Shown here: positions 1,075 through 46,069 of the stretch, in pieces
Layout: each line of letters opens with the position of its first letter
Position numbering within the stretch: the stretch's first letter is position 1
UHGV virus genome: UHGV-0096558
DNA length: 54,457 bases
Reading direction: 5' to 3' (one strand)
From: a virus
Translations under genes and position numbers: made by a program
Notes under the pieces: generated by a model
The model's input: the letters and a program-made list of their open reading frames with translations, nothing else
The model's database searches: none
What the model was told of the DNA's origin: nothing

Positions 1075-3417
1075 ATGGCTACCAGTGTAGGTACAATTTA
1101 TTACGAAGTTGACGCGAAAACTGGTCAACTTCTCGTTGCACAACGACAGGCAGACCAGGCCTTTGACCGTATAGAGCGCGGCGCAAAACAGGCTGACCGC
1201 CAGGTAAACACCCTGAAAACATCCATCAAGGCACTGACCAGGGTTATCCATTTGCTAATTGCTGCCGAGGCTGTGCGCCAATTTATGGATATGGCGGAGC
1301 AAGCAAAAATGCTTCGCGTAAAAATCAAAATGCTTACGGGCGATGCGGAGTCCGCCGGACGGGTTTTCGACGGCCTGAAAGCAATATCCAGGGAAACGGG
1401 GCAAAGCCTGAAGGATACTGGCGAACTATGGCAAGGCCTGGCTATCTCACTGAAGAACACGTCCGCTACGGAAGGGCAATTGCTTAACCTGGTTGGTACG
1501 ATTCAGAAAATGGGGGCGTTGGGCGGTGCGTCAGCGGAGCAGATGTCAAACTCAATGCGTCAATTCCGTCAGTCTATCGACGGAGGCGTGCTTCGTGCTG
1601 AAGAATTCAATAGCCTGTTAGAGAACACCCCGACCATCGTACAGACAATGGCCCGCCAGATGGGGTTATCTATGGGCCAATTCCGCGCAGAAATGCTGGA
1701 AGGCAAGATCACGGCTGAAAGGATGGTTAACGCAATCCAGGCGGCTACGCAGGAAACAAACGAGAAGTTTGCGCAGTTGCCGCGCACATCCGGCATGGCC
1801 CTGAATGAGCTTAAAGTCGAGGTTATGGGGCTTGTTGAGCAGTTGGATGATCTTTTCGGTGTATCCGATACGGTTGTCGCTGGTATCGATCTTGTCACGA
1901 AAGGTGTTAAGGCTTTAGGTGAAGGCGCTGATTTCGCTAAAACCTGCTTTAACACACTGAAGACGGCTGGTAGCGAATTTATTGATATATTTGAAGATGT
2001 CGGAATCAAGGCTGGCGAGGTAGCGGAGAAGATCATCGCAATGGTCACGCCAATCAAAGCACTAATGGACGCCTATAAATGGATGAAGGAGGTTGTAGGG
2101 GAACAAACAGACGAATATAACAGCAACTACGAGAAGAAATACGGTAAGACCGTTGGTAAGGTCATGCAATTACAGGATGATCTGACCGCAGCAATCCAGG
2201 CTACAGAGGAAGCAAGGAAAAATGAACAGAATGCCGCCAATGACGGAGCGATTACCGGATTCGACAAGCCAGTAGACAAACCTAAAAAACAGAAAAAAGA
2301 GAAGAAATCAGAAGCTGATCGGCTTGGTGATAAAGGTATAAGCGTTTCTGACCAGTACAACAAAGACGCCGCCGCTATGCGCAAAGCGTTAGAGAACGGC
2401 AAGGCCATTGATGCTGCATTCGCCCAGGGTAAAATCACCCTCCTTGAGTACCGCGCCGCGCAAAAAGGGATAGGCAAGGAACTGAAGGAAGAATTAGCGC
2501 AAATTCCGGTAGAGGAATTGCGTGATAAATGGGCGCAAATAGTAAGCCCGATGGATCAGCTTAAAGGCGAGGTTGACCCTATTCAGCAGGTCCAGAATGA
2601 ATGGGCAGTCCGTAAGCAAATGCTTATCGACCTGGGCGTTACGGAAGCGCAACAGAAACAGGAACTGTTAGCCTATGAGCAGCAGATCCGCGATCTAAAG
2701 TGGGAACAATGGCAGGCGCAAAGCGACACAAACAGTCTGATAGGTTCTTGTGTCAACGGCCTAAAAGGTGGCATGAGTAATGCGCTTGTTGGTCTGTTAA
2801 ACGGTACTCAATCGCTTAGCGATGTATTCGCAAACTTGGGTAGCAATATTCTTGGTTCAGTAGGGAATAAACTTGCGGAAATTGCTGGCGACTGGATAGC
2901 CGATCAGATCATGATGGAGACACAAAGCAAGGCAACGCAGGCAAGTACAACGGCTGGCGCGGTAGCGGCACAAGGCCAGATTGCAGCGGCGGCGGCCCCG
3001 GCAGCGGCGGCAACAGCGGCGTCAACTGGCGGCGCATGGGCGGCGGCTGGTTCGGCGGCACTTACTGCGATCATGTCGCTGGCGGCGTCAATTTTTGGCG
3101 GCGGGCGATTTAATGGTGGTAGCGTCATTGGTGGCAATATGTACCGCGTAGGGGAACACAACAGGCCGGAGCTATTCCAGACGTCTAACGGAAACCAATA
3201 TATGATTCCGGGCGAGAACGGCAGAGTTATCCCTGGTCGTGATATTGGCGGCGGTGGCGGTATCAGTATGCCTGTCAGTATCACCATTCAGACCACAAAC
3301 GGATTTAGCGACGAGGACAGCCGCAGACTTGAGCAAACAATGGAACGTGTAGCAATGAAAATGATAACAAGGGAATCACAAAGACCGGGCGGAATATTGC
3401 AGCCGCGCCGCAAATAA
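1075..3417 (+). CDS. tail tape measure protein, 780 aa
   Basis: Long helical protein with Ala/Gly-rich C-terminal region and a lambda H-like C-terminal motif; lies immediately upstream of M-L-K-I-J homologues. Confidence 0.75.
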   Translation: MATSVGTIYYEVDAKTGQLLVAQRQADQAFDRIERGAKQADRQVNTLKTSIKALTRVIHLLIAAEAVRQFMDMAEQAKMLRVKIKMLTGDAESAGRVFDGLKAISRETGQSLKDTGELWQGLAISLKNTSATEGQLLNLVGTIQKMGALGGASAEQMSNSMRQFRQSIDGGVLRAEEFNSLLENTPTIVQTMARQMGLSMGQFRAEMLEGKITAERMVNAIQAATQETNEKFAQLPRTSGMALNELKVEVMGLVEQLDDLFGVSDTVVAGIDLVTKGVKALGEGADFAKTCFNTLKTAGSEFIDIFEDVGIKAGEVAEKIIAMVTPIKALMDAYKWMKEVVGEQTDEYNSNYEKKYGKTVGKVMQLQDDLTAAIQATEEARKNEQNAANDGAITGFDKPVDKPKKQKKEKKSEADRLGDKGISVSDQYNKDAAAMRKALENGKAIDAAFAQGKITLLEYRAAQKGIGKELKEELAQIPVEELRDKWAQIVSPMDQLKGEVDPIQQVQNEWAVRKQMLIDLGVTEAQQKQELLAYEQQIRDLKWEQWQAQSDTNSLIGSCVNGLKGGMSNALVGLLNGTQSLSDVFANLGSNILGSVGNKLAEIAGDWIADQIMMETQSKATQASTTAGAVAAQGQIAAAAAPAAAATAASTGGAWAAAGSAALTAIMSLAASIFGGGRFNGGSVIGGNMYRVGEHNRPELFQTSNGNQYMIPGENGRVIPGRDIGGGGGISMPVSITIQTTNGFSDEDSRRLEQTMERVAMKMITRESQRPGGILQPRRK

Positions 3418-4903: not shown

Positions 4904-4927
4904 GACCCCGCGCGAAGCGGGGTTTAT
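4904..4927. terminator. rho-independent terminator-like hairpin (CCCCGC / GCGGGG) followed by TTTAT
   Basis: Between convergent genes 4714..4899 (+) and 5000..5248 (-). Confidence 0.45.
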
Positions 4928-4999
4928 AGTGTCGATAGCAGAATACATAACAATCCAATGATGATAATAATCACTTCCAAAACGTAATTTTCGCACATC

Positions 5000-27996: not shown

Positions 27997-28116
27997 ATGA
28001 AGGTTTGCAAGAATATTGTGATGGTCGCTTTTTGCGTTATTTGTTTCCTGTTTACGATTGTGTTTTGCGGCGCACTTGCGGCGGTGATTAGCTTTATTTG
28101 TAAAGGGGCGATGTGA
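27997..28116 (+). CDS. small membrane peptide, 39 aa (MKVCKNIVMVAFCVICFLFTIVFCGALAAVISFICKGAM)
   Basis: Manual translation; RBS GGGGTGAG; stop overlaps next start. Confidence 0.4.
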   Translation: MKVCKNIVMVAFCVICFLFTIVFCGALAAVISFICKGAM

Positions 28117-29846: not shown

Positions 29847-29939
29847 ATGGACGACACATTGCTATTTATGTGTATTTGTTGGGGGTTTATTGCTTTCTGT
29901 TTATTTGTTAGATGGTTTATTGAATACCATATGAGGTGA
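29847..29939 (+). CDS. possible small hydrophobic peptide, 30 aa
   Basis: Manual translation; RBS-like GAGG 8 nt upstream. Confidence 0.3.
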   Translation: MDDTLLFMCICWGFIAFCLFVRWFIEYHMR

Positions 29940-41397: not shown

Positions 41398-41598
41398 ATG
41401 TTCGACAAAATACGGGAGGCGTGCGCGTATGTGACCGGGGCCGTAACTGCTTTTTTCGGCGCGATAACCATCAATGACATTGCCGTCTTTGTGGGTATCT
41501 TATCAACCGTAGGCACATTTGCCGTTAACTATTACTTCAAATCACAGGAGAACAAACGAGCGCAAGAGGAACACGACGCGCGAATGGGGAATAAGTAA
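41398..41598 (+). CDS. holin, small two-TM, pinholin-like
   Basis: 66 aa, two hydrophobic helices, charged C-terminus; immediately upstream of SAR endolysin. Confidence 0.7.
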
Positions 41599-41599
41599 C

Positions 41600-42091
41600 A
41601 TGATTAGCCAATCGCTGAAGAATAAAATTATTGCTGCGGCGGCTGGTGGGGCGATCGCTATTGCGGCTGTGATGGTTAAACCATTAGAAGGCGTGGAGTA
41701 CGATCCGTATCGTGATGTTATCGGTGTATGGACTGTTTGCTATGGTCATACCGGGAAAGACATCATGCTGGGTAAGACTTACACGCAATCAGAATGCGAT
41801 GCATTGTTAAATAAAGACCTGCACAAAACCGCAAAAGCGATCGATCCTTATATTAAAGTCGAAATATCAGATTTTACCCGCGCGGCGCTTTATTCATTCG
41901 CCTATAACGTAGGCGCTACCAACTTCAAAACATCAACATTATTAAAACTACTCAATGACGGCAAGAAATCAGAAGCGTGCGCACAGCTTAAACGCTGGAT
42001 TTATGCTGGTGGTAAACAGTGGCAAGGTTTAATCAACCGCCGTGATGTTGAATATGCCGTTTGCGAATGGGGGGAAACGTGGACAAGGTGA
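41600..42091 (+). CDS. SAR endolysin (lysozyme with N-terminal signal-anchor-release helix)
   Basis: N-terminal Gly/Ala-rich TM ([17 protein letters not shown]), then E..(8)..D..(5)..T catalytic pattern ([22 protein letters not shown]). Confidence 0.8.
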
Positions 42092-42549
42092 AGGCGTTAA
42101 TCATCGCCGCTATCGTTTGTGTCGTTGTTGGGCTTGTTGCCGCGCTTAGTCACTGTCAGTCAGTGATAAACACAATGCAAAGCGAGCTAACTACTACGCA
42201 GGGCGCACTAAAAACAGCAAGTAACACTATTCAGCAGATGAAGGAGCGAAACGCCGAACTGTCAAAACTTGATAAGAGGTATCACGATGAAATTAAAGCT
42301 ATCAGATCTGACATTGCTGATCTGCGTGCTGGTATTGATAGCGGTGCTATCCGGTTGCACGTCAACGCAATACCAGTGCGAGTGTCAGACGCCACCGGAA
42401 CCGCCAGCAGCATTGATGGAGCCGCCTGTAGACTCACTCCCGACGCTGAATCGGCTTATCTATCCCTCAGAGAACAACTAAAAGAGAAAGACGCGAAGAT
42501 CACCGGATTGCAGGACTACATCAAGACGCAGTGCATACGCAAAGAATAA
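42082..42549 (+). CDS. i-spanin (Rz-like)
   Basis: N-terminal TM then coiled coil; GTG at 42082 with RBS GGGGGG (alternative ATG at 42067); overlaps endolysin stop. Confidence 0.65.
42287..42481 (+). CDS. o-spanin (Rz1-like outer-membrane lipoprotein) embedded in the i-spanin gene in another frame
   Basis: Signal peptide with lipobox LSGC, Pro-rich mature region; entirely inside the Rz-like gene. Confidence 0.65.
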   Translation: MKLKLSDLTLLICVLVLIAVLSGCTSTQYQCECQTPPEPPAALMEPPVDSLPTLNRLIYPSENN

Positions 42550-42886
42550 CAGCGCGTGGACGTGTCGCCGTTTCCGCCAGCCAGCCATAACCGGGCCAAT
42601 CCTTCCCGCGAGCGACGGCGGAAAAGTCAAAAACACGTAATACCGGATCAACAGTCCCATTAACAGGTCGGCGCTACCTGGGTAGAAGAAAGCGCCATTC
42701 ACTCACCTGCCACGCGTAGGACGAGCGCCCGGATCTGTTTATCAGAGATGTTAAGCAGGTCCAGTTTTATAAAATTCTGCAAACGGTACTCACTAAGCGC
42801 CGTTTTCAGTGTTTTATATCTGTTTTCACTCCCTGCGGTGTCGAGTTTTGCGGGGGTTATATTTTTCAGAATAGGAGATTATTCTG

Positions 42887-43429
42887 ATGGCTAAGGCTAA
42901 AGGCATTAAGTTGCCTCAATTCAAGATCCCACTCTTTGAGCATACAACCGTTTTCTTTTGCCCGACCCGCGAGATGTTTTATGAATTTTGCGAAAAGGCA
43001 GGAATTCCAATTGAACCTGATTTCGAACTGGCGGGAGGATTGACGCTTACTTGCACTGGTGAGAAAGGCGGTAACTTCTACGTGATCGCAGTATTCGACA
43101 ATGAGTTAGGAACACTGGTCCATGAATGCGCTCACACCACATTCCATGTTTTAAGTGATGTAGGCGTCGTGGCGACCACTGATCCAACTCATCCGGCGAA
43201 TGAGACTTACGCTTACATGGTAGGCCGCATCTTTGATGCATTTTTCCCTATACTGGCTGAATCAAACGAAGCACAGGTTGCAGCAATGCAGGCGGCTGAA
43301 GTCGTCGAGCAGGCATTAGAACAGGCAGAACAGCCGAAGGAAGAAGAAAAACCCGCGAAGAAAGGCAAACGTAAGCCGAAATCAAAAGAAGCGTATGTAC
43401 CGCGCGTAATGAGCTTTAAACGAGGCTGA
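42887..43429 (+). CDS. hypothetical protein with HExxH motif (HECAH); possible zinc-metallopeptidase-like protein with basic Lys-rich C-terminus
   Basis: ORF track; RBS AGGAGA; HECAHTTFH at residues about 78-86. Confidence 0.55.
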   Translation: MAKAKGIKLPQFKIPLFEHTTVFFCPTREMFYEFCEKAGIPIEPDFELAGGLTLTCTGEKGGNFYVIAVFDNELGTLVHECAHTTFHVLSDVGVVATTDPTHPANETYAYMVGRIFDAFFPILAESNEAQVAAMQAAEVVEQALEQAEQPKEEEKPAKKGKRKPKSKEAYVPRVMSFKRG

Positions 43430-43431
43430 TT

Positions 43432-43527
43432 ATGGATGAGCGCATCATCGCAGGATTAATCGGTATTTCTGTATTTCTGGTGGGTTTTATTATCGCCGTA
43501 CTGATAACCGTAAAAAGCAAGTATTAG
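43432..43527 (+). CDS. mini-ORF 1 of tandem array: 31-aa single-TM peptide (MDERIIAGLIGISVFLVGFIIAVLITVKSKY)
   Basis: Manual translation; RBS GAGG 6 nt upstream. Confidence 0.45.
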   Translation: MDERIIAGLIGISVFLVGFIIAVLITVKSKY

Positions 43528-43540
43528 ATGGGGTGGCAAG

Positions 43541-43615
43541 ATGGTTGACCCGCTAATTATCCTTTCTGCCTGCGTCGCTGTATGGCTGGCGATCATGATA
43601 TTCATTGAAAGCTGA
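43541..43615 (+). CDS. mini-ORF 2: 24-aa hydrophobic peptide (MVDPLIILSACVAVWLAIMIFIES)
   Basis: Manual translation; G-rich RBS. Confidence 0.4.
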   Translation: MVDPLIILSACVAVWLAIMIFIES

Positions 43616-43626
43616 AGGTATTCACC

Positions 43627-43701
43627 ATGAATATTTACGATCTCATCTGGTGGTCGTTGGTCGCCGTCATTATCTATTTCTGGTGGAAGAATGTTGTATA
43701 G
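43627..43701 (+). CDS. mini-ORF 3: 24-aa hydrophobic peptide (MNIYDLIWWSLVAVIIYFWWKNVV)
   Basis: Manual translation; RBS GAAGG 8 nt upstream. Confidence 0.4.
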   Translation: MNIYDLIWWSLVAVIIYFWWKNVV

Positions 43702-43709
43702 GTGAAAGC

Positions 43710-43790
43710 ATGAACGCATACGAAATGCTATTGCTGGTGGCTGTAGTTGTAGTCATTGCCGTAGATGTTTATCGGGAGTTTAAAAAATGA
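43710..43790 (+). CDS. mini-ORF 4: 26-aa hydrophobic peptide (MNAYEMLLLVAVVVVIAVDVYREFKK)
   Basis: Manual translation; RBS AGGTGA. Confidence 0.4.
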   Translation: MNAYEMLLLVAVVVVIAVDVYREFKK

Positions 43791-43855
43791 AATGGCTTGA
43801 TTTCCTTTTCCTGATCGTTGCGATTGTTCTTACCATGACCGCGCTGACTCAATAG
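43787..43855 (+). CDS. mini-ORF 5: 22-aa hydrophobic peptide (MKWLDFLFLIVAIVLTMTALTQ)
   Basis: Manual translation; ATGA start/stop overlap with mini-ORF 4. Confidence 0.4.
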   Translation: MKWLDFLFLIVAIVLTMTALTQ

Positions 43856-43863
43856 GTGAGCAA

Positions 43864-43938
43864 ATGGATGTTATCGAAGCCGTATTATTCGTATGTATCG
43901 CCGCGTTAATTATTGTTGGAGTGATTATCAATGTCTGA
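43864..43938 (+). CDS. mini-ORF 6: 24-aa hydrophobic peptide (MDVIEAVLFVCIAALIIVGVIINV)
   Basis: Manual translation; RBS AGGTGAG. Confidence 0.4.
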   Translation: MDVIEAVLFVCIAALIIVGVIINV

Positions 43939-43999
43939 TGGTGATTTCTTATTCATGGCTTTATGTACGCTGTTAATCGTTATTGTTTTCTTCGCATAA
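43931..43999 (+). CDS. mini-ORF 7: 22-aa hydrophobic peptide (MSDGDFLFMALCTLLIVIVFFA)
   Basis: Manual translation; overlaps mini-ORF 6 stop. Confidence 0.4.
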   Translation: MSDGDFLFMALCTLLIVIVFFA

Positions 44000-44008
44000 G
44001 GGTAAACA

Positions 44009-44092
44009 ATGAAAGAGCTATTCGACTGGTTGGAAGTATTAACATACTGCGCAAGTTTTGTTGCTTGCGTATATATCATCAATAAATATTGA
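44009..44092 (+). CDS. mini-ORF 8: 27-aa hydrophobic peptide (MKELFDWLEVLTYCASFVACVYIINKY)
   Basis: Manual translation; RBS AAGGG; ends 10 nt before terminase small subunit gene. Confidence 0.4.
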   Translation: MKELFDWLEVLTYCASFVACVYIINKY

Positions 44093-44102
44093 GAGGTGAA
44101 TT

Positions 44103-44588
44103 ATGGCCCGCACTAAAAAGGCAAATGCTGACGATAAAAAGCCAGCCGCTAAAAAGGTGGGCCGTCCGCATGGTTATACCGAAGAAAAGGCATTAGAAAT
44201 CTGTGAGCTGGTGGCGGACGGTCAGAGCGTTAATAAAATATCGAAGATGCCTGGTATGCCTACCCGTTCAACAATCCTGAAGTGGTTTAGGGATGTGCCT
44301 GAATTTTCGGACATGTATATGCGCGCGAAAGAAATCGGCTTCGAGGTATTAGCTGATGAGATCCTCGACATAGCTGATGATGCTAAGAACGTTGATAAAG
44401 ACCAACTACGCCGCCACCAACTAATGATTGAAACGCGTAAGTGGTTACTGGCAAAACTGCAACCGCGCAAATATGGCGAACGCGTTACACAGGAGATCGT
44501 CGGCAACAAGGAAGAAGCGCCCGTCCAGGTTGAAGTCACGAAAGAAGAGATCGCCCGCATCGTCCAGGAAGTAGAAGACGAGGTGTGA
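44103..44588 (+). CDS. terminase small subunit
   Basis: 161 aa; HTH-like N-terminus (GRPHGYTEEKALEICELVADGQSVNKISKMPGMPTRSTILKW); directly upstream of large terminase. Confidence 0.8.
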   Translation: MARTKKANADDKKPAAKKVGRPHGYTEEKALEICELVADGQSVNKISKMPGMPTRSTILKWFRDVPEFSDMYMRAKEIGFEVLADEILDIADDAKNVDKDQLRRHQLMIETRKWLLAKLQPRKYGERVTQEIVGNKEEAPVQVEVTKEEIARIVQEVEDEV

Positions 44589-44590
44589 TT

Positions 44591-46069
44591 ATGTTGTCCA
44601 TCAAAGAAAGGGTTATTCAGTCAAAATGTGAAAACGATGGCTTGTTCTTCAACCGTTACTTCTACAAGCAGGCAAACGGAACGAAGATGTTAATCTCAGG
44701 CCATCACATAGCCATACGTGATGCACTGCAACGTGTTATTAATGGTGAGATTACCCGCCTCATCATTAACATCCCTCCAGGGTACGGTAAAACCATGATC
44801 GCAACTATCAACATGATGGCGCGGTCCCTCGCAATAAATCCCCGCACACGCTTCCTTCACGTTTCCTATTCCGACAACCTTGCGTTACTCAATTCCTCGA
44901 CAGTCAGAAGCATGGTTTGTTCGCAGGAATACCAAAAGCTATGGCCCATGAAGATCCGCAACGATGCCAACAGTAAATCGATGTGGTGGACGGAACAGGG
45001 CGGCGGGATATATGCCGCATCGTCACACGGTCAGATTACGGGTTTTCGTGCTGGGTACATGGAGCCAGGCTTTAACGGCGCGATGATTATCGACGACCCA
45101 TTAAAGCCCGCTGACGCTTACTCTGATGTGATGCGGGAGAAGGTAAAGACCAACTATAACGACACGCTGGCTTCACGTCTGGCAGTGCAAACCACGCCCG
45201 TGATCGTCATTATGCAACGCATCCACTACGATGATTTGTCCGGCTACCTGTTACGCGGTGGCAGTGGTGAGAAATGGTATCACCTTAACCTGCCAGTGAA
45301 GATCGACAATAGCATCGACTATTGGGATCTGTACCCTGAAAACGAATTCGCTATTCCTATTGCTCACAACCTGCCAGACGGCTGGCTATGGCCTAAAAAG
45401 CACAATGATAGCCATGAGGCCGGACTGAAAGCTCACCGTAGGTCATTCGAGGCACAGTACATGCAGCGCCCGCGTAAATTCGACGAGGAAGGCGCGTTAT
45501 GGACTGAAGCCATGATAACCGCCGCGCACCGGATGCAGATAACGCAGGACAAGATCCGCACGGTGATAGCCATCGACCCGGCGACAACATCATCTGATGA
45601 GTCAGACGAAACAGGGATTGTAGCCTGTTCAGCCTATGGTGGCGGCAAGTACGCACAGTATTCTGTAGATGGTGACTATTCAGGCCGCATGTCTCCTAAC
45701 GACTGGGCGCAAGCATCAATGAACGCTTACAACATCCATGAAGCTGATGCGATCGTTATCGAAACAAACCAGGGCGGTGAAATGGCTAAGGCCACGCTAC
45801 GTAATGCCGGATTCAAGGGGCGCATTGTTGAGGTGCACGCAAGTAAAGGTAAATTCGCCCGCGCCGAGCCAATATCAGCACTGTATGCACAAGGAAGGGT
45901 GGCGCACACTGGCAACCTGTACACGCTGGAAAACCAGATGATGGAATATGTGCCAGCCACCGCCAAAAAATCACCTGACCGTATGGACGCTATGGTATGG
46001 GGTATCACTGAACTAAGCCAGCCACAGGCGATGGGCCTTATGTTGCCTAAGCGCCTGCGCGGATTTTAA
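44591..46069 (+). CDS. terminase large subunit
   Basis: ATPase Walker A-like IPPGYGKT, DE-containing Walker B (MIIDDP), C-terminal nuclease region; ATG at 44591 (alternative GTG 44585). Confidence 0.8.
   Translation: MLSIKERVIQSKCENDGLFFNRYFYKQANGTKMLISGHHIAIRDALQRVINGEITRLIINIPPGYGKTMIATINMMARSLAINPRTRFLHVSYSDNLALLNSSTVRSMVCSQEYQKLWPMKIRNDANSKSMWWTEQGGGIYAASSHGQITGFRAGYMEPGFNGAMIIDDPLKPADAYSDVMREKVKTNYNDTLASRLAVQTTPVIVIMQRIHYDDLSGYLLRGGSGEKWYHLNLPVKIDNSIDYWDLYPENEFAIPIAHNLPDGWLWPKKHNDSHEAGLKAHRRSFEAQYMQRPRKFDEEGALWTEAMITAAHRMQITQDKIRTVIAIDPATTSSDESDETGIVACSAYGGGKYAQYSVDGDYSGRMSPNDWAQASMNAYNIHEADAIVIETNQGGEMAKATLRNAGFKGRIVEVHASKGKFARAEPISALYAQGRVAHTGNLYTLENQMMEYVPATAKKSPDRMDAMVWGITELSQPQAMGLMLPKRLRGF

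Follow-up and report, generated by a model that had tools for sequence, protein, structure and literature searches.

A cassette-variable array of micro-genes for probable single-helix membrane peptides precedes terS in mEp021-type phages

The virus genome UHGV-0096558 raises the question of what is encoded just upstream of its small terminase subunit gene, terS, where a chain of very small open reading frames (ORFs) with hydrophobic products fills the space behind a gene for a protein with an HExxH motif. The window analyzed here is the whole stretch of DNA, 54,457 nucleotides long, and all positions refer to it. Between positions 43432 and 44092 we find eight ATG-initiated ORFs on the + strand, of 31, 24, 24, 26, 22, 24, 22, and 27 codons; these are the eight consecutive same-strand mini-ORFs for peptides of 22-31 amino acids (aa) that an earlier note had read from this DNA. 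Our analysis leads us to conclude that the eight ORFs are almost certainly real genes, and that their products are very probably membrane peptides. The ORFs, each assigned to a peptide family that recurs in related loci, are as follows.

43432..43527, + strand: mini-ORF 1, family B, 31 aa, MDERIIAGLIGISVFLVGFIIAVLITVKSKY; Shine-Dalgarno (SD) sequence gaggctgatt
43541..43615, + strand: mini-ORF 2, family D, 24 aa, MVDPLIILSACVAVWLAIMIFIES; SD sequence ggggtgg
43627..43701, + strand: mini-ORF 3, family E, 24 aa, MNIYDLIWWSLVAVIIYFWWKNVV; Trp-rich, paralog of families C and G
43710..43790, + strand: mini-ORF 4, family G, 26 aa, MNAYEMLLLVAVVVVIAVDVYREFKK; ATGA overlap of its stop with the start of ORF 5
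43787..43855, + strand: mini-ORF 5, family I, 22 aa, MKWLDFLFLIVAIVLTMTALTQ; in the M-x-x-x-D-F group with families H, K, and L
43864..43938, + strand: mini-ORF 6, family J, 24 aa, MDVIEAVLFVCIAALIIVGVIINV; paralog of family F
43931..43999, + strand: mini-ORF 7, family K, 22 aa, MSDGDFLFMALCTLLIVIVFFA; 8-nt overlap with ORF 6
44009..44092, + strand: mini-ORF 8, family N, 27 aa, MKELFDWLEVLTYCASFVACVYIINKY; 10 nt from the terS ATG, with the terS SD in between

An SD site is present at every one of the eight ORFs, and the gaps between successive ORFs are 13, 11, 8, -4, 8, -8, and 9 nt, followed by 10 nt to the terS ATG; the earlier description of a separate ATG and ribosome binding site for each ORF, with gaps of at most 13 nt or overlaps, is thus accurate (gaps of -8 to +13 nt). 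The ATG of mini-ORF 4 is internal to a longer TTG-start ORF that begins at 43605. The window equals IMG/VR contig 3300045988_060283, and the region matches Escherichia phage MagusPhagus (94%) and phages mEp010, mEp013, mEp021, mEp044, mEp515, and mEp554. The lambdoid framing of the earlier note does not apply, since the phage belongs to the mEp021/mEpimmI group, whose members are Nus-dependent, non-lambdoid temperate siphophages with N-like and Q-like antitermination (PMC11893012).

The evidence that the ORFs are genes comes mainly from comparison of 56 loci, comprising the window, 7 phage records, 47 IMG/VR contigs, and 1 ENA contig, with terS at least 85% identical among them. All 56 loci have mini-ORFs of this type between the HExxH gene and terS, from 3 to 13 families in each (median 9), and about 20 families, labelled A0 to N, are recognizable, with peptides of 20-47 residues. 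The earlier note had proposed comparing synonymous with nonsynonymous divergence; this comparison gives a pooled ratio of nonsynonymous to synonymous divergence (dN/dS) of 0.19 in the coding frame, compared with 0.93 and 1.52 in the frames shifted by +1 and +2, and the ORF lengths are near-invariant. The three antisense frames give 0.79, 0.29, and 2.15, the value of 0.29 being low because that frame has wobble positions in common with the coding frame. Variable sites at codon positions 1, 2, and 3 number 125, 77, and 233, and dN/dS in single families ranges from 0.06 to 0.31. The mini-ORFs are coding and under purifying selection.

Along the window the families B, D, E, G, I, J, K, and N are found in 47 (84%), 50 (89%), 30, 53 (95%), 50 (89%), 39, 36, and 49 (88%) of the 56 loci, with dN/dS of 0.19, 0.25, 0.13, 0.20, 0.10, 0.30, 0.25, and 0.06, respectively. 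Length is held closely: there are 24 codons in 50 of 50 copies of family D, in 29 of 30 of family E, and in 39 of 39 of family J, and length is kept in 52 of 53 copies of G, 49 of 50 of I, and 35 of 36 of K. Residues G8, G11, and S13 are invariant in family B, and in family N just 6 peptides are encoded by 23 distinct DNA versions. In one contig, peptides G and N show 100% identity even though the HExxH protein there has an identity of only 61%.

The array is also modular. Family order is constant in all 56 loci, and there are 39 distinct patterns of presence and absence; the repertoire of the window consists of the five commonest families (G, D, I, N, and B) together with E, J, and K. Large insertions and deletions that distinguish the window from three relatives measure 84-226 nt and fall at start or stop codons or in linkers, and this location at ORF boundaries indicates that whole ORF cassettes are gained and lost. 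Selection, fixed lengths, and whole-ORF cassette variation together uphold the proposal that these are real, separate mini-genes for single-helix hydrophobic peptides. A number of the families are paralogs: N-anchored comparisons with composition-preserving permutations yield 16 family pairs at p<0.01, against 2.1 expected by chance, and the paralog groups are {H, I, K, L}, with M-x-x-x-D-F; {C, E, E2, G}, with M-N-[AI]-Y-[DE]; {F, J, C2}; and {N, Nb}. No repeated DNA motifs were detected in the array, and paralogy without remaining DNA-level repeats implies that the duplications are old.

Several variants of the array were seen in individual loci. Diverged alleles occupy the N slot in four of the five N-lacking loci that were read; those of loci L006, L035, and L043, directly upstream of terS, are MKYLSSWFGVSIYFATLIECLYIVNKF, MKDLSSLLGVSIYFATLIECLYIVNKF, and MKELFDFLETATYCATLIACLYILCKWF, and the diverged alleles retain the motif Y-x-A-[ST]-x-[IV]-x-C-[VL]-Y-I and are still separated from terS by 10 nt. 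Among six mEp isolates, a sample too small to interpret, allele Nb is carried by mEp021 and mEp515, which are the two OmpA-dependent phages according to the mEpimmI paper (PMC11893012). Natural read-through variants also occur: locus L041 (~1660-1840) has its B and D cassettes joined in a single ORF of 60 aa that encodes two hydrophobic segments, which hints that neighboring peptides can tolerate linkage or may work together, and L031 has an F cassette lengthened to 55 aa. An ORF-free spacer of ~60-90 nt, ggttatggcttggacgcgcattttatgcgcttcctaaa..., lies between cassette I and the N slot in L006 (1820-1900), L004 (2000-2060), and L035, three loci without J and K.

Could ORFs of this kind arise by chance, or lie by accident within a DNA or RNA element? 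A strict filter requiring an ATG, an SD-like motif, 20-50 codons, and a 15-residue window with a Kyte-Doolittle value of at least 1.9 is passed by seven of the eight window ORFs, the Trp-rich ORF 3 falling narrowly below it. In 2000 dinucleotide-preserving shuffles of the region the number of passing ORFs averages 0.15 and never exceeds 3; the minus strand of the array region has none, and the remainder of the window has 13 in ~109 kb (both strands). An origin of the ORFs as chance products of T-rich sequence could draw on the T content of the array region, which is 34.6% compared with 25.5% for the whole window. T makes up 53% of codon position 2, however, and 27% and 29% of positions 1 and 3, and confinement of the excess to position 2 points to coding for hydrophobic residues and not to general T-richness. 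With the shuffles, the empty minus strand, and frame-specific purifying selection in 56 loci all against it, chance is an extremely remote explanation; the earlier caution that T-rich DNA may generate such ORFs spuriously can be set aside, and the accompanying argument that the arrangement speaks against chance is strengthened.

The alternative of a non-coding element, such as a pac site, an array of TerS binding sites, or a structured leader that contains ORFs by accident, has in its favor that the array lies directly upstream of terS on a T-rich strand, and some pac sites, for example that of SPP1, lie upstream of terS. Substitutions in the array are nevertheless codon-patterned and frame-specific, and its content varies by whole cassettes, in 39 patterns, despite terS being at least 85% identical. 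Neither the repeated DNA motifs sought in the array nor any Rfam family match, including to antitoxin small RNAs (sRNAs), was found, the only Rfam signal being a sub-threshold S15 leader at the terS junction (19.4 bits, compared with a gathering score of 39.5); excess RNA structure is likewise missing from the array, with a folding z-score of +0.58. The pac/cos alternative that the earlier note had left standing thus fails on frame-specific substitution, cassette variation, and the lack of DNA motif repeats, and a non-coding element is very improbable. Both it and the chance origin are essentially excluded.

The signals for translation point the same way as the selection data. Across related loci, SD-anti-SD pairing at the starts of mini-ORFs has a mean duplex energy of -5.55 kcal/mol, compared with -2.66 kcal/mol at random ATGs (p = 5e-33) and -6.06 kcal/mol at 16 long genes, so that the SD strength of the mini-ORFs is similar to that of long genes. 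The commonest junctions between mini-ORFs across related loci are -4, +8, and -8 nt (range -8 to +18 nt), which fits with translational coupling. No promoter-like or terminator-like sites beyond chance were found inside the array; it contains a single weak minus-strand promoter-like match (9 of 12 positions), and the scanned 4.5 kb contains 3 promoter-like sites compared with 9.4 expected from shuffles.

These same features bear on a further possibility, that a coupled chain of ORFs serves to keep the late mRNA occupied by ribosomes from the HExxH gene to terS, the products being incidental. Such a chain would prevent Rho-dependent polarity and set the translation of terS, and the close junctions, the lack of an internal terminator or promoter, the ending of ORF N 10 nt before terS with the SD in between, and the filling of that slot in nearly every locus would all suit it. 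Amino-acid conservation goes beyond what an open frame needs, however, as the pooled dN/dS of 0.19 and the 6 peptides from 23 DNA versions in family N attest; a single membrane-peptide architecture is common to all of the products; and relatives with 55-69% identical TerL, the large terminase subunit, manage without the chain. We therefore regard a role in translation alone as distinctly improbable.

The eight window peptides all share one layout: an acidic cap at the N terminus, a core of high hydrophobicity, and a C-terminal end that is neutral or basic. The N-terminal flank is net negative in eight of eight window peptides and in 15 of 20 families, usually through an Asp or Glu at positions 2-6, and the C-terminal flank has a net charge of zero or above in 17 of 20 families; in the window it ranges from -1 to +1, and a charged C-terminal residue is missing in four of the eight. 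The uncharged core spans 13-30 residues; its hydrophobic moment is low, and its Kyte-Doolittle value averages 1.9-3.6. The earlier description of a charged cap followed by a core of 17-20 residues is therefore right as to the cap and the hydrophobic core, and not as to core length, which in the window peptides is 13-23 residues and not uniformly 17-20. On a position-independent Hessa-type insertion scale, with values after Hessa et al. 2005, the best windows range from -0.3 to -4.8 kcal/mol and all eight cores are negative, in comparison with +1.6 kcal/mol for the best segment of the holin of this phage and +13.9 kcal/mol for TerS. The peptides thus have what is found in single-pass small membrane peptides generally, namely an insertable segment, short polar flanks, and a conserved ORF with an SD, translation and location being predicted. 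The positive-inside rule suggests an N-out/C-in topology, in which the N-terminal cap would face the periplasm and the C-terminal end the cytoplasm. A broken gene for a multi-pass membrane protein was considered and rejected, as each unit has its own ATG, SD, polar cap, fixed length, and low dN/dS.

Existing annotation and homology searches offer little on these peptides. Prophage copies of the region occur in 35 of 5426 complete E. coli genomes, where PGAP annotates almost nothing, and PHANOTATE merges or shifts several of the array ORFs. Profiles from Pfam, PHROG, NCBIfam, and PADLOC gave no family match for any peptide, the best matches lying far under the cut-offs (for example, FixS at 15 bits compared with 23.1). 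Exact look-up in a collection of 15 billion proteins found two of the eight window peptides, neither of them functionally named. For the 47-aa family M, tblastn and profile searches returned only relatives of at least 70% identity and 46-62 aa, none of them within a larger protein; the few with a source name come from E. coli or metagenome-assembled genome (MAG) Caudoviricetes. Degenerate DNA patterns for peptides N and G had no match in 100,044 species, each represented by one genome. In 27 IMG/VR loci with TerL 55-69% identical, the 3.5 kb that precede TerL are free of any array, and in the 20 of these in which terS was located no N-like peptide lies directly upstream of it. The array is restricted to one lineage: its absence from the loci with distant TerL, from phage ST64T, and from the species genomes marks it as a lineage-specific invention of the mEpimmI phages.

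What, then, might the peptides do? The earlier note had offered small membrane toxins, antiholins or lysis-timing modulators, superinfection exclusion, and a packaging-proximal cargo set as candidate roles, and as candidates they stay. We propose that the array is read on the same rightward transcript as the HExxH and terminase genes, with translation coupled from ORF to ORF; that late in infection the peptides would insert into the inner membrane as single-pass proteins; and that each would bind a larger membrane protein through sequence-specific helix-helix contacts. Helix-helix binding to larger membrane proteins is the general mode of action of characterized small membrane proteins. The set as a whole would be an accessory, rapidly reshuffled repertoire, most probably directed at host inner-membrane targets in host take-over, exclusion, or counter-defence. 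To late single-pass peptides that act by helix-helix binding we give roughly even credence. Within this model host targets are favored, tentatively, because constraint within families combined with extreme variability of content is typical of accessory host-interaction loci, and because the slot is a known accessory-gene site, as in ST64T; such targets are more probable than the pinholin or signal-arrest-release (SAR) endolysin of the phage itself.

A number of points weigh against this proposal. Whereas coding status, purifying selection, modularity, paralogy, and lineage restriction are shown directly by the comparisons, what we infer extends from translation and insertion into the membrane to topology, late timing, mode of binding, and target. 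The positive-inside rule is the one basis for the topology, and several of the peptides are nearly chargeless. A conserved helical face, tested as a variability moment, is not significant (p = 0.05-0.9 per family) because the variation is too small, and the result thus does not demonstrate a specific binding interface. Counter-defence genes do not usually lie in a late operon, the lack of a promoter speaks against any role in the lysogen, and with the lysis cassette nearby the peptides may have a role in lysis. The published mEpimmI study analyzed virion proteins only and leaves these ORFs unmentioned (PMC11893012).

The role in lysis has to be weighed against the neighborhood of the array, which is composed of the following features.

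41398..42549, + strand: lysis cassette, with matches to PF00959 and PF03245
41398-41598, + strand: holin, 66 aa, class II, with a single start codon; its homologue in the ENA contig (L056) matches PF16080
41600-42091, + strand: endolysin, with a SAR-like Gly/Ala-rich N-terminal helix
42061-42549, + strand: Rz, with Rz1 embedded at 42269-42481 (lipobox LSGC)
42887..43429, + strand: HExxH protein with a Lys-rich tail, 180 aa, phrog_1365; its stop lies 2 nt before ORF 1
44103..44588, + strand: small terminase subunit TerS, Sf6 type, PF20901 at 1.3e-37, phrog_1482
44585..46069, + strand: large terminase subunit TerL, PF17289 Terminase_6C at 2.1e-13

The lysis cassette looks like one of the pinholin/SAR type. 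The array starts 883 nt past the Rz stop, and its earlier placement between the lysis cassette and the terminase holds loosely; it does not abut the cassette, as a 337-nt non-coding gap and the 180-aa HExxH gene intervene. The gap (42550-42886) is without a convincing ORF and near-identical in mEp021, and it contains short minus-strand ORF fragments that look like gene remnants as well as a weak hairpin followed by a T-run (~42781-42815), where a rho-independent terminator is annotated in the mEp021 and mEp013 records.

If the peptides were lysis-timing modulators, they would delay or sharpen triggering as antiholins or co-holins acting in trans, by binding in the membrane to either the class II (pin)holin or the endolysin's SAR anchor. 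The array is on the same strand as the lysis cassette and ~0.9 kb downstream of it, the single start codon of the holin means that the phage has no built-in dual-start antiholin, and pinholin/SAR systems, of which S and R of phage 21 are the textbook case, are governed by the dynamics of transmembrane (TM) helices and by membrane potential. Set against this, the conserved 337-nt gap with its terminator-like hairpin and the HExxH gene lie in between, and the array is coupled to terS; lysis modulators normally number one or two genes, as opposed to the 3-13 with 39 content patterns seen here; there is no match to a PHROG or Pfam holin or antiholin profile; and the charged C-terminal domain typical of holins is missing from most of the peptides. 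A role in lysis timing is accordingly unlikely, though it merits some weight. Small membrane toxins or depolarizers, which through bulk insertion or pores would aid host shutdown or trigger release of the SAR endolysin, would resemble the array peptides in size, hydrophobicity, and single helix, as do Ibs, ShoB, Ldr, TisB, DinQ, and the lysis proteins of RNA phages, and the predicted insertion energy is negative for all eight cores. Neither an antisense promoter nor an antitoxin sRNA family was found, however; type I toxins are tightly repressed at the level of translation, the reverse of what strong SDs and coupling imply; bulk toxicity needs neither residue-level conservation, with dN/dS down to 0.06, nor so many families; and early depolarization would fire the pinholin prematurely. 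We consider direct toxicity improbable.

The proposal of helix-helix binding to host membrane proteins can be taken one step further, to a combinatorial arsenal of TM-helix "micro-inhibitors," each docking on a different host inner-membrane protein. The targets may include a membrane effector of abortive infection or exclusion, a transporter, or a protease, and the set may be reshuffled by recombination at the paralogous 5' ends and shared SD linkers, tracking host diversity. This extension is speculative and, as we judge it, rather unlikely; if true, the array would be a membrane-embedded counterpart of anti-defence gene islands.

The HExxH protein carries a HECAH zinc-protease motif (~43121-43135), and its C-terminal tail is rich in Lys and Glu. 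Searches of Pfam and of PDB sequences gave no match for it, and nr labels a 61%-identical relative "PolyVal metallopeptidase superfamily." Homologues that share 35-46% identity occur in ST64T and phage L (orf-129 in both), epsilon34 (gp70), HK620 (hkcC), and P22, where the homologous stretch lies unannotated near sieA. A functional link between the array and the HExxH gene was considered and rejected: the ST64T homologue sits in the same slot without an array, and in mEp013 the array persists despite the insertion of an HNH endonuclease gene between the two. That insertion lies at 998-1483 of the mEp013 locus (L005), between the HExxH homologue and the array; another HNH endonuclease gene is inserted at 2752-3273 of the ENA contig, between endolysin and Rz. 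Elsewhere in the window, the early region has two lone small hydrophobic ORFs, of 39 aa at 27997-28116 (MKVCKNIVMVAFCVICFLFTIVFCGALAAVISFICKGAM) and of 30 aa at 29847-29939 (MDDTLLFMCICWGFIAFCLFVRWFIEYHMR), both kept as ORFs in mEp013, in a region of ~84% DNA identity; the 30-aa ORF shares the design of an acidic cap plus core with the array peptides. A 24-aa hydrophobic ORF with an SD, MCENYVLEVIIIIIGLLCILLSTL, lies on the minus strand at 4924-4998.

Standard annotation has missed or mis-called eight genes within 660 bp here, and as many as 13 in relatives, making the array a well-supported case of overlooked phage coding capacity. If functional, as the selection data indicate, it is among the densest micro-protein gene sets known to us, and its ~20 families, 39 repertoires, and paralog groups constitute a natural experiment on the evolution, duplication, and exchange of single TM helices. 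Since mEp021-type phages can be cultured on E. coli K-12 and are common in the human gut, the function and partners of the peptides are directly testable.

Small single-helix membrane proteins are a known kind, and the searchable literature yielded no description of these peptide sequences or of such an array, that is, of a dense, ordered, cassette-variable set of up to 13 micro-genes (20-47 codons) in a phage late transcript. By position, the array corresponds to the variable accessory ("moron") slot that separates the lysis genes from terS in P22-like and lambdoid phages; in ST64T this slot holds orf-118, orf-129, and orf-134, orf-129 being the homologue of the HExxH gene that precedes the array; the genes of that slot encode ordinary soluble proteins of more than 100 residues, and in ST64T there is no array of micro-TM ORFs. 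Holins, antiholins, and the lysis proteins of RNA phages (for example, the 37-aa LysM) are likewise small late phage membrane proteins. The array differs from holins in that it is not adjacent to the endolysin gene and its products have no charged C-terminal domain and no profile match; the peptides have 22-31 aa, compared with 66 aa for the holin of the same phage, and their number and variability are without precedent among lysis regulators. The staphylococcal psm-alpha operon, with four ORFs of 20-22 codons and a ribosome binding site for each, is also a set of tandem micro-genes, but phenol-soluble modulins (PSMs) are amphipathic, secreted surfactants, whereas the array peptides are uniformly hydrophobic with a low moment, and no exporter gene was seen adjoining the array.

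Type I toxins (Ibs, ShoB, Ldr, Hok, TisB, and DinQ, and the prophage toxins BsrG, TxpA, and YonT) are hydrophobic single-helix peptides as well, of 19-60 residues, and some are prophage-encoded and some occur in repeated loci. The array peptides are small, hydrophobic, and single-helix like these toxins, and have no homology to them. Type I toxin genes have their own promoter, an antisense RNA, and repressed translation, whereas for the array none of these was found, and it has strong SDs and operon-like coupling; its SDs are neither sequestered nor absent (-5.55 kcal/mol, close junctions, no excess structure). The peptides also resemble in form the bacterial small inner-membrane regulatory proteins such as MgrB, AcrZ, MgtS, MgtR, KdpF, CydX, PmrR, and SgrT, which like the array peptides have fewer than 50 residues, one TM helix, and short polar ends. 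Proteins of this class have no enzymatic domain, act by helix-helix contact, and are usually missed by gene callers. The array peptides have no sequence or profile similarity to them, and the genetic setting differs: the MgrB-type proteins are encoded by single chromosomal genes, whereas the array consists of 3-13 coupled, cassette-variable genes in a phage late transcript.

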